A program made the translations under genes and the position numbers. Shown here piece by piece: positions 776 to 7,140 of a DNA stretch of 7,140 bases; the stretch's first letter is position 1; every line of letters begins with the position of its first letter. The notes beneath the pieces were generated by a model. It saw only the letters and a program-made list of their open reading frames with translations, searched no databases and had not been told where the DNA came from. The stretch lies in NCBI RefSeq assembly GCF_003334385.1, contig NZ_QOWN01000073.1; one strand, given 5' to 3'. This DNA comes from Escherichia coli (GTDB lineage: Bacteria; Pseudomonadota; Gammaproteobacteria; Enterobacterales; Enterobacteriaceae).

Positions 776-982
776 ATGAATACCCCAGTTTCACTGATGG
801 ATGACCAGATGGTCGACATGTCGTTTATCACTCAGCTGACCGGCCTGACCGATAAATGGTTTTACAAGCTCATCAAGGATGGTGCCTTTCCTGCCCCCAT
901 CAAACTGGGCCGTAGCTCCCGATGGCTGAAAAGTGAAGTGGAAGCCTGGTTGCAGGCACGTATTACACAGTCCCGTCCGTAA
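776..982 (+). CDS. alpA: AlpA-family prophage regulatory protein (small HTH DNA-binding protein, 68 aa)
   Basis: ATG at 776 preceded by GGAGGA at 762-767 (8-nt spacer); stop TAA 980-982. Translation MNTPVSLMDDQMVDMSFITQLTGLTDKWFYKLIKDGAFPAPIKLGRSSRWLKSEVEAWLQARITQSRP has the size and single helix-turn-helix layout of AlpA/Vis-type regulators. The track ORF 722..982 adds 18 N-terminal codons with no RBS, so the internal ATG is preferred. Family call is from recall, not a search. Confidence 0.7.
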   Translation: MNTPVSLMDDQMVDMSFITQLTGLTDKWFYKLIKDGAFPAPIKLGRSSRWLKSEVEAWLQARITQSRP

Positions 983-1067: not shown

Positions 1068-1640
1068 ATGCAAAAACTTGAAAACCGGTGTGAGCTGCTG
1101 CTCATCCAGCATCAGAAATGGATGACAAACGTGACGAGGCTTATCGTCGCTCATGGAATGGGGGCTCCGCATCTTCATGGTTATCACCGCCTGACCCTGG
1201 CCCACTTTTTTCTGCCAGAAAAAGGCACCATCATCTCAGTGGCACCACAGGGACTCTATCAGGTCGTCAACCCGGGAACACCACCGTTCATTCCTGCCAT
1301 TCAGGAAGGGTTAATGACCAGCATTCAGACCCATGAAATCATGCTGCTTACACATTTTAATCTGGGCGGCGTTTTACTCAGTGAGCTACATCGTCTGGGT
1401 GAAAACCGGCTGGCAAACAGGCTGAACAGCCTGCTCCGGCGTTTCAACGATCGTGATCTCTACCACACGCTGATATGGCTGTGCTGGTATGATCTGATGT
1501 GTGCTCACTCCATGCAGCCCTGGACTGAAGAGTTAAAGCATAAATCACATGCAGAGCTTGAAAACTGGGCTGTGGCGCGCAAACGGGAAAAGCGCGAGCT
1601 GGAACTGATGATTGACGAGTACCTGTTATACGCCTGTTGA
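1068..1640 (+). CDS. hypothetical protein (190 aa), function unknown; probably co-transcribed with the AlpA-like gene
   Basis: ATG at 1068 preceded by AAGGAGA at 1054-1060 (7-nt spacer); stop TGA 1638-1640. The track ORF starts at a TTG (1041) upstream of the RBS, so the ATG is preferred. Only 85 bp separates it from the alpA stop, same strand. I do not recognise the protein; it may belong to the small proteins often found beside alpA in such islands, but that is unverified. Confidence 0.6.
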   Translation: MQKLENRCELLLIQHQKWMTNVTRLIVAHGMGAPHLHGYHRLTLAHFFLPEKGTIISVAPQGLYQVVNPGTPPFIPAIQEGLMTSIQTHEIMLLTHFNLGGVLLSELHRLGENRLANRLNSLLRRFNDRDLYHTLIWLCWYDLMCAHSMQPWTEELKHKSHAELENWAVARKREKRELELMIDEYLLYAC

Positions 1641-1760: not shown

Positions 1761-3251
1761 TTATAAGCCAAAGGATTGCTCATGCCATCTTATCAGTTTC
1801 TGGCTGTAGCACGCATTCAGTTCAGGCAGCGTGATATTGTTTATTTCGGAAAGCAGGACATAGGTGGTTTTTCCTTCCTGCACGACAGAGAGCCTGAGTT
1901 GAGATGCAAGAATGTTCAGCAGGACGTTCAGCTTTTTCCTGTTCCGGAACCGGCCCGGGCCACACTGGAGAATATAATTTTTCCTGACACGGGGCGGGCA
2001 TTCTCCGCGGCACTCCTCAATGAGCCAGTCGAACAGCTCCTCGGCGTCCTTCTGCTGCAGTTCAGATTCATCAGGTAACGCAAATAATTTTTTATATTCA
2101 TCTGTGTACCACGAACTTATTACGACAGCAGACGTCATGATATCGGCAGAGATTTTCCCTTCACCCTGACTGAAATACTGCAATAACGCAGCAATTCTCG
2201 CAATGTTTTCTGTTTTTTTTGAAACATGCCCCCGAAACTGGCTTAAGGGTCCGGAAGGAGACAAATCCTGCTCCAGAACATTATAGTGATCAATAAATAT
2301 TTTTTGCGCTTCAGGAGAAAAATGCAGACAATAACGTTCATCCTTACTGGATTTTTCAATACTGCCTCTGGCCAGTTCCATTAATCGTTCATGAAATGCC
2401 GTTAATGATCCTCCCGGGGTCACAGCTCCGTTAATAAAGCGTTTCCCCTGCGTGGTGGCAGGTTTACTGATTAGACAACGGGCAAGAAAACCACTGTCCC
2501 TGGCAACAGAACCTTTTCGCTCCATATATCGGTCAAAAAGACCGGGTTGTACCATGAGGGATAATGTCATTCTAGCATTTTCAATCATCTGTTCGGGTTC
2601 ATTCTTTCTGTCCACCGACAATACGGAGCCATCCCACATTTTGTTAATAAAAGGCAGCTCAGACAGGGTATACCCATCAAATATTATACCGGCTTCATCA
2701 GACATGATACCCACTGAACGCCACTGACCACAAAGCTGATCTTTAATTGCTGCTGTCGTGGCATCATTAAAAATGAATTTATATCTTACAGGTTTTTCCC
2801 CTCTGTTTTTCTGAAGCGCTTCCAGTTGTCTGAGCGTTTCTGACTCATCCGCGCCTTTGCGGAGTTCTTTATTCAGTTTTGACAACAATGCTTTTTTCTG
2901 CGCCTTTAAAAGCTCTTCCTTATTTTTCCATATCGTCAGTTCATTTTTGTGTCTGGAATATAACAGCATCTCCTGCTGGTACAGGGGCTCCATTAATAAT
3001 TTGTCCACTGCGGTTTTTCGTTCTCCGGACTCAGCAAGCGTCAGTAAGAAAAGAGAAACCGGCCCCCGCAGTGTATTCAGTCTGCAGACATCAATCAGAT
3101 TCTGGCAGACAAGTGAAACAGCGCCCAGGGCAGATGCTGCCACAAGCCCCAGGGGAGCCTGCGTGATTTGCTGAGCTTCAATAACGGCATCACGAATGAG
3201 TGGAGGCAGCGAGCTCAGGGGAAACTCATCAGGATACTGAAAGTATGGCAT
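1761..3251 (-). CDS. P-loop NTPase-like protein, tentatively DUF3987 / YfjI-like family (~496 aa)
   Basis: Long uninterrupted minus-strand ORF in AT-rich DNA, where long chance ORFs are unlikely. Preferred start is ATG at 3251-3249 with GAGGT 5 nt upstream; the track ORF starts at GTG 3269. Stop TAA (complement of 1761-1763). Protein contains a degenerate Walker A-like LAESGERKT and a Walker B-like GIMSDEAG, plus an N-terminal PLSSLPPLIRDAVIEAQQITQAPLGLVAASALGAVSLVCQ stretch that I recall as typical of DUF3987/YfjI-like proteins. Family assignment is recall-based and unverified. Confidence 0.55.
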   Translation of the reverse strand: MPYFQYPDEFPLSSLPPLIRDAVIEAQQITQAPLGLVAASALGAVSLVCQNLIDVCRLNTLRGPVSLFLLTLAESGERKTAVDKLLMEPLYQQEMLLYSRHKNELTIWKNKEELLKAQKKALLSKLNKELRKGADESETLRQLEALQKNRGEKPVRYKFIFNDATTAAIKDQLCGQWRSVGIMSDEAGIIFDGYTLSELPFINKMWDGSVLSVDRKNEPEQMIENARMTLSLMVQPGLFDRYMERKGSVARDSGFLARCLISKPATTQGKRFINGAVTPGGSLTAFHERLMELARGSIEKSSKDERYCLHFSPEAQKIFIDHYNVLEQDLSPSGPLSQFRGHVSKKTENIARIAALLQYFSQGEGKISADIMTSAVVISSWYTDEYKKLFALPDESELQQKDAEELFDWLIEECRGECPPRVRKNYILQCGPGRFRNRKKLNVLLNILASQLRLSVVQEGKTTYVLLSEINNITLPELNACYSQKLIRWHEQSFGL

Positions 3252-3744
3252 AATGACCTCACAACACACAGAACATAAAGTACCGCAACTATTGCTACTA
3301 ATAGCAAAAATAGCAGCAGAATCAATACAGGATAAAAATTTCTGTCGATTTTCAGATTAAATAATAACCATTCGGTATTTTGTCGCTAAAGAATGTTAGA
3401 ATGAATCTGTGCGTCTACGGGCGCTCTCCGGAACACACATGTTGATTAATTTTCACACAACAACGTACCAGCAAAAAGCATCATCCAGGGTATTGCAGGT
3501 ACGGGTTTCCTGCCGGGAATAAACATAAACAGTTTCCCCGGAGTAACGCTTTCAGAAAACTGCCCTCCTGAAGAAGAATAAAATAAAGAAGATGACAGTT
3601 CCTGCACTGAATGCTGAGTACAATATTCTATGGACAGGATGACATTTTTATAAATAACAAAAACCATTTAATACTGATACATCAATAAAATACTTCCTCC
3701 CTGCTGACACAGATAAAATGCAACATTTTTTCTTCAAATACTTC

Positions 3745-3753
3745 TGTATAATC
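3745..3753 (+). promoter_or_regulatory. candidate sigma70 extended -10 element (TGTATAAT) inside the AT-rich region
   Basis: tgTATAAT at 3745-3752 on the + strand with no good -35. AT-rich DNA produces many such matches, so this is weak. Confidence 0.2.
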
Positions 3754-4084
3754 GCCAGCCAATGATGAGAATGGATTAAAATAACACTTCTTCGACAAAC
3801 ACAAAAACCAGCCTTCATTTTCACATCATCATCCAGTTTTAATTAAACCCTGACGAGCGACAGTATTTCAGTTCAGGAATTAAAAGCCAGCTATTACTCA
3901 GTAAAAACACCACCAACTAATAATATCTCAGCAGATATTTCCTGACCAGGATGACACATTTATTAAAGATTTTTAACAGGACACTTCACATTACTGAACG
4001 CTATTCCGACAGTATCACTACACAAATAAAAAAGGGAACTGGATAAATATTCATGCCGGAAGAATGGTGTAACAAAAGCATTTA

Positions 4085-4097
4085 ATCATTACGTGCG
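4085..4097. repeat. 13-bp direct repeat, copy 1 (atcattacgtgcg)
   Basis: Exact 13-mer atcattacgtgcg at 4085-4097, repeated at 4209-4221; the two copies flank the 30-bp palindrome. Confidence 0.6.
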
Positions 4098-4110
4098 TAT
4101 TCCTCTCTAT

Positions 4111-4140
4111 TCGATCACGGTTTGGCCAAACCGTGATCGA
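4111..4140. repeat. perfect 30-bp palindrome (15+15, no spacer) carrying two GATC sites
   Basis: tcgatcacggtttgg|ccaaaccgtgatcga is exactly self-complementary; GATC at 4113-4116 and 4135-4138; central TGGCCA. Read directly from the sequence. Confidence 0.9.
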
Positions 4141-4208
4141 TTCAGATGCCATTTTGCAAGTACGCATGACCCGGAAGGGAAACACTTAACAACATGGTAT
4201 CAACAGAT

Positions 4209-4221
4209 ATCATTACGTGCG
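4209..4221. repeat. 13-bp direct repeat, copy 2 (atcattacgtgcg)
   Basis: Exact second copy of the 13-mer at 4085-4097. Confidence 0.6.
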
Positions 4222-4527
4222 CACTCTTATAAAAATACACAGCAGAAGCAAGATAACTCTAAACGTAAATTTAATATCTCCCACTGACTGCCCCGACAAT
4301 ATACTGAAAAATACTCACCTCAGTAAACATAAACACACCTGATAATCAGGCTGCAAGATGAATATTTTTCTCCTTTACGGAGTAATCAGCCTGCTGTTTA
4401 ACAATAACCGCGTATTTTCATGGAAGGATATCACCCAATAACGGATAACTCCTGCCCTCCTTCATGTTAATACGCAACATCCCCATCGATTCCAAACAAT
4501 TTCAGACAGATATTATCTCCGTGAATC

Positions 4528-4567
4528 CCCCGCCACCTTTCCGGTGTGCGGGGTTTTGTCTTTTTTC
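4528..4567 (+). terminator. intrinsic (Rho-independent) terminator-like hairpin plus T-tract immediately upstream of the GTPase start codon
   Basis: Stem ccccgccacc (4528-4537) pairs with ggtgtgcgggg (4543-4553) as 10 bp with one bulged T, loop tttcc, followed by ttttgtctttttt (4554-4567). GTPase ATG is at 4583. Confidence 0.5.
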
Positions 4568-4582
4568 ACCGGGAATACATGT

Positions 4583-5455
4583 ATGAATCCGTCTGATGCC
4601 ATTGAGGCAATTGAAAAACCACTTTCTTCCCTGCCTTACTCGCTTTCCCGTCACATCCTGGAACATCTGCGCAAACTCACCAGTCACGAACCCGTGATTG
4701 GCATTATGGGTAAAAGCGGGGCCGGTAAATCCTCACTCTGTAATGCGCTGTTTCAGGGGGAGGTCACCCCGGTCAGTGATGTTCACGCCGGCACCCGGGA
4801 AGTGCGGCGCTTCCGTCTGAGTGGTCACGGTCACAGCATGGTTATCACTGACCTGCCCGGGGTGGGCGAGAGCCGGGACAGGGATGCAGAGTATGAAGCC
4901 CTGTACCGTGACATTCTGCCTGAACTGGACCTGGTGCTGTGGCTGATTAAAGCCGATGACCGGGCCCTGTCTGTGGATGAGTATTTCTGGCGACACATCC
5001 TGCAGTGCGGACATCAGCAGGTGCTGTTTGTGGTGACACAGGCCGACAAAACGGAGCCCTGCCATGAATGGGATATGGCCGGCATTCAGCCCTCTCCCGC
5101 ACAGGCACAGAACATTCGCGAAAAAACGGAGGCGGTATTCCGTCTGTTCCGGCCTGTACATCCGGTTGTGGCCGTATCGGCCCGCACCGGCTGGGAACTG
5201 GATACGCTGGTCAGTGCGCTCATGACAGCGCTTCCCGACCATGCCGCCAGTCCCCTGATGACCCGCCTGCAGGACGAGCTGCGCACGGAATCTGTCCGCG
5301 CTCAGGCCCGTGAGCAGTTTACCGGTGCGGTGGACCGGATATTTGACACAGCGGAGAGCGTCTGTGTTGCCTCTGTTGCACGCACGGTTCTGCGTGCCGT
5401 CCGTGACACAGTGGTCTCTGTTGCCCGCGCGGTATGGAACTGGATCTTCTTCTGA
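4583..5455 (+). CDS. yeeP: YeeP/YkfA/YfjP-family GTPase (50S ribosome-binding GTPase-like, 290 aa), apparently intact
   Basis: Translation MNPSDAIEAIEKPLSSLPYSLSRHILEHLRKLTSHEPVIGIMGKSGAGKSSLCNALFQGEV... contains G1/Walker A GKSGAGKSS, G3 DLPG and G4-like TQADK. I recognise the sequence as the island GTPase found directly upstream of flu. The track ORF 4544..5455 begins inside the upstream hairpin; ATG at 4583 is the more plausible start. Stop TGA 5453-5455. Confidence 0.88.
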   Translation: MNPSDAIEAIEKPLSSLPYSLSRHILEHLRKLTSHEPVIGIMGKSGAGKSSLCNALFQGEVTPVSDVHAGTREVRRFRLSGHGHSMVITDLPGVGESRDRDAEYEALYRDILPELDLVLWLIKADDRALSVDEYFWRHILQCGHQQVLFVVTQADKTEPCHEWDMAGIQPSPAQAQNIREKTEAVFRLFRPVHPVVAVSARTGWELDTLVSALMTALPDHAASPLMTRLQDELRTESVRAQAREQFTGAVDRIFDTAESVCVASVARTVLRAVRDTVVSVARAVWNWIFF

Positions 5456-5539
5456 ACCTGTTGTGGATGATGTCCTCCTTGCCTCTGAGTCTGCTCACAA
5501 AAGCGCTGTTTTCGTTACTGTCTCTCTTGTCCGTGCAAT

Positions 5540-5610
5540 AGCTTGATAATAGAATAAAACGATCGATACCTATTTTATCGATCGTTAATATCGATCGCTA
5601 TACTAATAAT
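5540..5610 (+). promoter_or_regulatory. agn43 (flu) promoter / phase-variation switch: OxyR-binding region with three Dam GATC sites
   Basis: Three CGATCG motifs with GATC at 5561-5564, 5580-5583 and 5593-5596 (spacings 19 and 13 bp), ~200 bp upstream of the flu ATG. This matches the known Dam/OxyR epigenetic switch of agn43. Exact -35/-10 and TSS cannot be fixed from sequence alone; TTGATA at 5543-5548 is a candidate -35. Confidence 0.8.
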
Positions 5611-5760
5611 AACTCCTGTTAGCAACGTGCGCAGATACACACAGACATGAGATTCAGGGAACAACAGAGCCACACGTCAGAAACTTCCGTCAGCCGGACC
5701 TCCGGCACTGTAACCCTTTACCTGCCGGTATCCACATCTGTGGATACCGGCTTTTTTATT
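5567..5760 (+). ncRNA. isrC: agn43 leader RNA / IsrC-like small RNA (prematurely terminated flu 5' leader); boundaries approximate
   Basis: The 3' end is defined by the intrinsic terminator at 5724-5760; the 5' end is assumed to be the flu TSS near the GATC cluster. From memory, an sRNA (IsrC) is annotated in the yeeP-flu intergenic region of E. coli K-12; coordinates here are inferred, not verified. Confidence 0.4.
5724..5760 (+). terminator. intrinsic terminator in the flu leader, ~30 nt upstream of the flu start codon
   Basis: Perfect 12-bp stem gccggtatccac (5724-5735) / gtggataccggc (5740-5751), loop atct, followed by ttttttatt (5752-5760). Confidence 0.75.
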
Positions 5761-5788
5761 CACCCTCACTCTGATTAAGGAAATGCTG

Positions 5789-7140
5789 ATGAAACGACAT
5801 CTGAATACCTGCTACAGGCTGGTATGGAATCACATTACGGGCGCTTTCGTGGTTGCCTCCGAACTGGCCCGCGCACGGGGTAAACGTGGCGGTGTGGCGG
5901 TTGCACTGTCTCTTGCCGCGGTCACGTCACTCCCGGTGCTGGCTGCTGACATCGTTGTGCACCCGGGTGAAACAGTGAATGGCGGAACACTGGTAAACCA
6001 TGACAACCAGTTTGTATCCGGAACAGCTGATGGCGTGACTGTCAGTACCGGGCTTGAGCTGGGGCCGGACAGTGACGAAAACACCGGCGGGCAATGGATA
6101 AAAGCGGGTGGCACAGGCAGAAACACCACTGTCACCGCAAATGGTCGTCAGATTGTGCAGGCAGGAGGAACTGCCAGTGATACGGTTATTCGTGATGGCG
6201 GAGGGCAGAGCCTTAACGGACTGGCGGTGAACACCACGCTGGATAACAGAGGTGAGCAGTGGGTACACGGGGGAGGGAAAGCTGCCGGTACAATTATTAA
6301 CCAGGATGGTTACCAGACCATAAAACATGGCGGACTGGCAACCGGAACCATCGTCAACACCGGTGCAGAAGGTGGTCCGGAGTCTGAAAATGTGTCCAGC
6401 GGTCAGATGGTCGGAGGGACGGCTGAATCCACCACCATCAACAAAAATGGCCGGCAGGTTATCTGGTCTTCGGGGATGGCACGGGACCCCCTCATTTACG
6501 CCGGTGGTGACCAGACGGTACACGGAGAGGCACATAACACCCGGCTGGAGGGGGGTAACCAGTATGTACACAACGGTGGCACGGCAACAGAGACGCTGAT
6601 AAACCGTGATGGCTGGCAGGTGATTAAGGAAGGAGGAACTGCCGCGCATACCACCATCAACCAGAAAGGAAAGCTGCAGGTGAATGCCGGCGGTAAAGCG
6701 TCTGATGTCACCCAGAACACGGGCGGTGCACTGGTTACCAGTACAGCTGCAACCGTCACCGGCACAAACCGCCTGGGAGCATTCTCCGTTGTGGCGGGTA
6801 AGGCTGATAATGTCGTACTGGAAAATGGCGGACGTCTGGATGTGCTGAGCGGACACACAGCCACTAATACCCGCGTGGATGATGGCGGAACGCTGGATGT
6901 CCGCAATGGTGGTACCGCTACCACCGTATCCATGGGGAATGGCGGGGTACTGCTGGCCGATTCCGGGGCCGCTGTCAGTGGTACCCGGAGCGACGGAACG
7001 GCATTCCGTATCGGAGGCGGTCAGGCGGATGCCCTGATGCTGGAAAAAGGCAGTTCCTTCACACTGAACGCCGGTGATACGGCCACGGATACCACGGTAA
7101 ATGGCGGACTGTTCACCGCCAGGGGCGGCACACTGGCGGG
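5789..7140 (+). CDS. flu: antigen 43 (Ag43) self-associating autotransporter adhesin, 5' partial (first ~450 codons; continues beyond window end)
   Basis: ATG at 5789 with AAGGA at 5777-5781 (7-nt spacer). Translation begins MKRHLNTCYRLVWNHITGAFVVASELARARGKRGGVAVALSLAAVTSLPVLAADIVVHPGETVNGGTL..., the extended autotransporter signal peptide of Ag43 (predicted cleavage after ...PVLA, about nt 5944). It continues with the beta-helix passenger repeats (GGTA..T.VN.GG pattern). Recognised from recall of Ag43; no stop codon in frame before 7140. Confidence 0.95.
   Translation, partial: MKRHLNTCYRLVWNHITGAFVVASELARARGKRGGVAVALSLAAVTSLPVLAADIVVHPGETVNGGTLVNHDNQFVSGTADGVTVSTGLELGPDSDENTGGQWIKAGGTGRNTTVTANGRQIVQAGGTASDTVIRDGGGQSLNGLAVNTTLDNRGEQWVHGGGKAAGTIINQDGYQTIKHGGLATGTIVNTGAEGGPESENVSSGQMVGGTAESTTINKNGRQVIWSSGMARDPLIYAGGDQTVHGEAHNTRLEGGNQYVHNGGTATETLINRDGWQVIKEGGTAAHTTINQKGKLQVNAGGKASDVTQNTGGALVTSTAATVTGTNRLGAFSVVAGKADNVVLENGGRLDVLSGHTATNTRVDDGGTLDVRNGGTATTVSMGNGGVLLADSGAAVSGTRSDGTAFRIGGGQADALMLEKGSSFTLNAGDTATDTTVNGGLFTARGGTLA

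Follow-up and report, generated by a model that had tools for sequence, protein, structure and literature searches.

An Ag43a-like agn43 allele of Escherichia coli with a divergent stem cassette between K-12-like flanks

The window, the whole 7,140-nucleotide stretch of Escherichia coli DNA that was analysed (contig NZ_QOWN01000073.1 of assembly GCF_003334385.1), ends in an open reading frame that begins with an ATG at position 5789 (MKRHLNTCYRLVWNH...) and runs without a stop through 450 codons up to the window end. The RefSeq agn43 annotation of strain DETEC-S792, a 99.9%-identical relative, uses the same start codon. The genes and features considered here are listed below in the order of their position.

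776–979, plus strand: AlpA/excisionase-like helix-turn-helix (HTH) gene
1068–1637, plus strand: hypothetical gene, 190 aa
1761–3251, minus strand: YfjI-family gene
4583–5455, plus strand: GTPase-family gene, intact
5527–5555, plus strand: putative sigma-70 promoter-like site, TTGTCC-17 nt-TAGAAT (9/12 matches in a consensus scan)
5559–5764, plus strand: agn43 5' leader, full-length match to Rfam RF00124 ('IS102 RNA')
5561–5564, 5580–5583 and 5593–5596, plus strand: three GATC (Dam) sites
5724–5761, plus strand: terminator-like hairpin, with a 12-bp stem (5724–5751) containing 8 G-C pairs, followed by the T run TTTTTTATTC
5789–5944, plus strand: extended (ESPR) signal peptide, agn43 codons 1–52, with 51/52 residues as in K-12
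5945–5992, plus strand: passenger start, codons 53–68, with 16/16 residues as in K-12 and also as in Ag43a
5993–6724, plus strand: divergent cassette, codons 69–312, most of the SL ('stem of the L') subdomain, SL2b
6725–7140, plus strand: beta-hairpin, EJ1 elbow and following rungs, codons 313–450, with approximate borders; the gene runs past the window

The order of the upstream genes was the same in the annotations of DETEC-S792 and Nissle 1917. The agn43 island of K-12 contains a decayed version of this upstream module, in which the yeeP-like GTPase gene preceding agn43 is a pseudogene that lacks its N-terminal part, whereas its counterpart in the window is intact. The YfjI-family gene (1761–3251) had no match among the NCBIfam models. 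Between it and the GTPase-family gene lies a 1.3-kb AT-rich stretch (3252–4582; 34–40% GC, against 50–60% in the flanks) that contained no open reading frame longer than 73 aa and carried no annotation in the RefSeq relatives; an Rfam scan of positions 3240–4600 returned nothing credible, with a sub-threshold match to MDR-NUDIX (E = 0.76). At the other end of the window, most related genomes, including Nissle 1917, matched only from position 75–78 on, and in DETEC-S792 the coding sequence of an IS3-family transposase ends at approximately window position 69. Positions 1–77 are probably an insertion-sequence or island junction.

A megablast search against 5,426 complete E. coli genomes revealed 624 complete-genome records that match the agn43 segment with a DNA identity of at least 95%. 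The best match was DETEC-S792 (99.9%), and the O25b:H4-ST131 strain 2822 and several other human isolates among the matches listed were 98.8% identical. Nissle 1917 also carries the allele, with 16 of 1352 bases different and the same gene neighbourhood; from position 78 on, the window and Nissle 1917 were 99.1% identical. The mobile-island context is thus common to Nissle 1917 and to human isolates including O25b:H4-ST131, which helps to place the source strain. In three further genomes that were 99.8% identical (NZ_CP060083.1, NZ_CP060061.1 and NZ_CP060057.1, from G1/2, G6/7 and G8), the window match was split by IS421. The Ag43 gene of these three genomes is annotated as 'AIDA repeat-containing protein', suggesting that Ag43 is the gene interrupted by IS421.

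Comparison of the promoter-like site with K-12 revealed two mismatches between the hexamers and none within them, and the three GATC sites were invariant among the window, K-12 and DETEC-S792. The GATC cluster lies directly downstream of the promoter-like site, in the sequence arrangement expected of the Dam/OxyR switch. At agn43, OxyR represses, and Dam methylation of the GATC sites that overlap the OxyR site blocks OxyR, producing heritable ON and OFF phases (PMC3764049). By analogy with the studies on Ag43a and K-12, expression of the present gene should also be phase-variable: binding of OxyR at the three-GATC region would correspond to the OFF phase, and methylated GATC sites would correspond to the ON phase. 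An 11-bp inverted repeat at 5558–5586 (AACGATCGATA...TATCGATCGTT) holds GATC sites I and II in its arms; a terminator scan called this repeat on the minus strand, and it is probably part of the symmetry of the OxyR site, not a terminator.

The leader matched RF00124 over the whole model (positions 1–206 of 206; cmscan 256.4 bits, gathering score 46), and it extends from the first GATC site to the terminator-like hairpin. The hairpin ends 28 nt, and its stem 38 nt, before the start codon. Compensating changes in K-12 conserve this structure, which presumably has a role in leader attenuation.

The encoded fragment belongs to the Ag43 family by profile comparison. Residues 1–450 aligned to positions 1–452 of the 948 positions of the NCBIfam model NF033177 (auto_Ag43) with 793 bits; that the fragment stays under the whole-protein cutoff of 1200 is due solely to the 57% of the protein missing from the window, and the full-length DETEC-S792 relative scored 1837.5 bits against the same cutoff. 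The Ag43 of DETEC-S792 is 1040 aa long and the same as the window protein except at T234, with the first 233 residues identical. Pfam detected four kinds of domain in this relative, namely ESPR (PF13018, residues 6–49, E = 1.7e-13, in a region identical in the window), AIDA repeats (residues 97–458), AC_1 (574–691) and the autotransporter beta-domain (767–1016). Seven stretches matched the strand-loop-strand repeats of TIGR04415; these repeats, the Pfam matches and the 98.5% identity to a solved beta-helix (4KH3) indicate a beta-helical passenger of AIDA-type 19-residue rungs. DETEC-S792 and Nissle 1917 both encode proteins of 1040 aa, the size of the long SF-I form; class C3 is characterised by BL1, the AC1-E autochaperone and a long passenger of roughly 500 aa. 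Positions 5789–7140 are almost certainly the 5' 43% of an agn43 (flu) gene of class C3 and Ag43a type that looks intact, with the rest, namely the BL subdomain, autochaperone and beta-barrel, assumed from the relatives, and the encoded protein would be a type Va autotransporter adhesin that self-associates.

Alignment with K-12 MG1655 revealed a mosaic pattern. The DNA identity was at least 92% up to approximately position 5993, fell to 57–80% in 5994–6720, and was again at least 92% past 6720, giving 81.4% for the whole segment. At the protein level, residues 1–52 (51/52 identical) and 53–68 (16/16) were followed by a block, residues 69–312, in which 150 of 243 residues were identical (62%) with one 1-residue indel, and then by residues 313–450, in which identity rose to 96% (133/138). 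The amino-acid differences were strongly clustered, 93 of 243 positions in the block against 6 of 206 outside it (Fisher p = 4e-22). The first-pass annotation had described an Ag43 allele divergent from K-12, with a K-12-like signal peptide and a K-12-like C-terminal part of the visible passenger; the alignment bears out the divergence as well as both flanks, and it did not show the near-identity to the K-12 allele that would have spoken against this description. Its placement of the divergence in the first ~250 passenger residues holds for residues 69–312, but not for the first 16 residues (53–68), which are identical to K-12. The Ag43a crystallised passenger begins at residue 52–53.

Synonymous and nonsynonymous distances to K-12 (Nei-Gojobori) followed the same borders. 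Codons 1–68 had dS 0.07 and dN 0.007, codons 313–450 had dS 0.13 and dN 0.017, and codons 69–312 had dS 1.16 and dN 0.27, corresponding to dN/dS of approximately 0.23. Because synonymous sites in the block are saturated, the block is an old, separately evolved cassette that was recombined onto shared flanks.

The reference alleles were identified by a phmmer search against all PDB chains, in which the best match was 4KH3 (Ag43a of CFT073; E = 3.7e-244), followed in order by 7KOB, 7KOH and 7KO9, which are the structures of Ag43b, EDL933 Ag43 and UTI89 Ag43, respectively (Vo et al., PMC8993888). The Ag43a and Ag43b references are the PDB sequences taken from the search alignments. Identities of the window protein in the joint alignment were as follows.

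Ag43a: overall 98.5% (392/398); block 69–312, 99% (242/244); after 313, 97%
Ag43b, compared over residues 52–417: overall 83%; block 69–312, 78%; after 313, 96%
K-12: overall 75%; block 69–312, 62%; after 313, 96%
EDL933: overall 70%; block 69–312, 74%; after 313, 64%
UTI89: overall 65%; block 69–312, 65%; after 313, 64%

Alignment to K-12 and the two CFT073 alleles was the check that the first-pass annotation had proposed, and the values for the passenger agree with its expectation. In the published scheme, the passenger is divided into SL, EJ and BL subdomains, and the classes arise from shuffling of SL types with EJ-BL modules (Ageorges et al., PMC6668479, PMC10058404). Class C1, represented by K-12, combines SL1 with EJ1-BL1, and class C3, containing Ag43a and Ag43b, combines SL2 with EJ1-BL1; SL1 and SL2 are approximately 75% similar, and EJ1 sequences are approximately 97% similar (PMC6668479). 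A refinement in 2023 distinguished SL1a in C1 and SL2b in C3, reported that EJ1 always occurs with BL1, and gave the share of C3 as 17.5% of the Ag43 sequences in Escherichia genomes (PMC10058404).

The 98.5% identity to the crystallised Ag43a of CFT073 (4KH3) places the allele in class C3. Residues 69–312 were closest to Ag43a, the structural reference for C3, with 62–65% identity to K-12 and UTI89, which carry SL1, and were assigned to SL2b by identity to the reference alleles. Residues 313–450 were 96–97% identical to K-12, Ag43a and Ag43b, against 64% to EDL933 and UTI89, which carry EJ2, and were assigned to EJ1. The conserved motif of the first EJ rung, published as VVLE[N/S]GGRLDVL (PMC6668479), was found as VVLENGGRLDVL at residues 342–353. 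SL2b, instead of SL1a, was united with EJ1 through recombination or domain shuffling. The first-pass suggestion of a distinct subfamily allele stands as far as the class is concerned (C3 against C1), but both alleles belong to the same subfamily, SF-I, in the older two-subfamily scheme.

Among the references, Ag43a (c3655) of the uropathogenic strain CFT073 (4KH3; C3, SL2b-EJ1-BL1; SF-I) has the same SL2b cassette and the same EJ1 as the window allele, which by its identities is of the Ag43a sub-type and clearly not of the Ag43b sub-type. Six substitutions relative to Ag43a are visible: N81D, T234P, I371V, A376T, K404T and S407R. At N81D and the four EJ changes, the window carries the Ag43b states. 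Ag43b (c1273) of CFT073 (7KOB; C3) shares the Asp at alpha-domain position 29, but its block is only 78% identical. The K-12 MG1655 protein (Flu; C1, SL1a-EJ1-BL1) shares the signal peptide, the EJ1 region, the three-GATC switch and the leader, but has a different SL type across residues 69–312. EDL933 Ag43/Cah (7KOH; C2) and UTI89 Ag43 (7KO9; C4) have the family and the L-shaped beta-helix architecture in common with the window protein; the EDL933 stem is the related SL2a, 74% identical in the block, and both proteins have EJ2-BL2 modules and a shorter passenger (PMC8993888), with 64% identity past residue 313. At codons 371, 376, 404 and 407 (6899–7009), the window encodes V, T, T and R, as in Ag43b, and Nissle 1917 has the Ag43a residues. 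The Ag43b states at these four positions show that EJ1 itself is mosaic on a small scale.

Another origin for the block would be rapid change of its amino acids in place, under positive selection, on a K-12-like allele. The block is the surface-exposed self-recognition region, for which diversifying selection is plausible, and the amino-acid differences are indeed concentrated there. Selection of this kind is at odds with the synonymous distances, in which the block (1.16) far exceeds the flanks (0.07 and 0.13), and with a dN/dS of approximately 0.23; moreover, the DNA identity changes abruptly at the borders, the block is 99% identical to that of Ag43a and is joined to EJ1 in hundreds of genomes, and network analyses in the literature point to shuffling of subdomains (PMC6668479, PMC10058404). 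We rejected in-place evolution as highly improbable, since the dS contrast effectively refutes it. An even smaller probability, close to nil, attaches to the assignment of the gene to another self-associating autotransporter, Cah, AIDA-I or TibA, instead of Ag43. AIDA-type repeats are common to these proteins, the NCBIfam and PDB searches gave weaker matches, with 184 bits for AIDA-I and E = 7e-41 for TibA, and megablast found genes annotated as cah at 80% identity. Against this, the Ag43 model scored 793 bits on the fragment compared with 184 for AIDA-I, the protein was 98.5% identical to the Ag43a crystal sequence, the RefSeq relatives are annotated as agn43, and the Cah of EDL933 is itself an Ag43 of class C2 and only 70% identical. 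These scores and identities led to the rejection of AIDA-I, TibA and Cah.

The gene might also be a non-functional copy, cut short or disrupted past the window end or encoding a protein that misfolds through T234P, and this we regard as unlikely, though clearly less so than the two preceding explanations. Only 450 codons are visible, IS421 appears to interrupt this allele in some relatives, and the private T234P strikes an invariant Thr of a beta-helix rung. On the other hand, the reading frame is open throughout its 450 codons, the promoter and GATC region are intact, and most close relatives have an intact 1040-aa gene; a long beta-helix need not be disrupted by one Pro, and the substitution creates a C5 run that may be a base-call error.

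T234P results from an A-to-C change at 6488 on the plus strand (ACC to CCC); counted from the start of the alpha-domain, the residue is number 182. Alignment pinned the mismatch to this base: the best matches of the 61-mer centred on it were all 98.4% identical, with one mismatch, and the exact 61-mer was absent from all 753 complete genomes carrying the segment. Thr occupies position 234 in all five reference alleles and the equivalent position of seven regular rungs, in the pattern GGxAxxTxI. The Asp beside it, alpha-domain D181, is an interface residue of EDL933 Ag43, and so is its counterpart D180 in Ag43b (PMC8993888). The change could be a real variant, or it could be a base-call error, the latter being possible because the A-to-C change makes a run of five C. 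A real T234P could impair folding or alter aggregation; that it is real and also has a measurable effect on folding, surface display or the strength of aggregation, making the allele a natural Ag43a variant with altered self-association, has a slim chance, slightly below that of a non-functional copy. T234P is the only private and the only undescribed feature of the allele, which is otherwise already known, structurally solved and common, an ordinary member of class C3.

Comparison with the interface residues of Ag43a (PMC8993888, Table 2) revealed that 11 of 12 are present at the expected positions: R111, N112, D131, N148, T149, T150, G167, R252, E268, T289 and T308. The twelfth, N29, is Asp in the window (D81), as in Ag43b, in which D29 still bonds T255 (PMC8993888). 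The 61-mer surrounding D81 occurred exactly in 717 of 829 genomes carrying the segment, with CFT073 in the minority. D81 was considered as a notable interface change and rejected, as most genomes with the segment have it and D29 takes part in the interface of Ag43b.

The conservation of 11 of 12 interface residues points to autoaggregation through self-association of the passenger. If the protein behaves as Ag43a does, the ESPR signal peptide would direct Sec export, the C-terminal barrel, encoded beyond the window, would translocate the passenger, and the passenger would fold into an L-shaped beta-helix. The SL subdomains of two cells would then pair head-to-tail in a 'Velcro handshake' of hydrogen bonds and salt bridges, and this pairing would lead to cell clumping and promote biofilm formation.

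The statement of the first-pass annotation that Ag43 alleles differ in aggregation agrees with the literature, in which the sedimentation kinetics of C3 are reported as different (PMC6668479, PMC10058404). C3 sediments more slowly than C1, C2 and C4, Ag43a aggregates most strongly among the C3 proteins, and C1 and C3 prototypes formed less than 5% mixed aggregates, without significant co-aggregation (PMC6668479). Since the SL cassette bears the interface, the present allele is expected to form aggregates with its own type but scarcely any with K-12-type Ag43. The published C1 and C3 aggregation data, together with the location of the interface, suggest that the divergent block is the specificity-determining part of the protein.

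The class of the allele predicts its behaviour: a C3, Ag43a-type protein self-associates through a structurally defined interface, and compared with K-12-type Ag43 it differs in sedimentation and shows no significant co-aggregation. The class name thus tells more than the bare label 'Ag43'.
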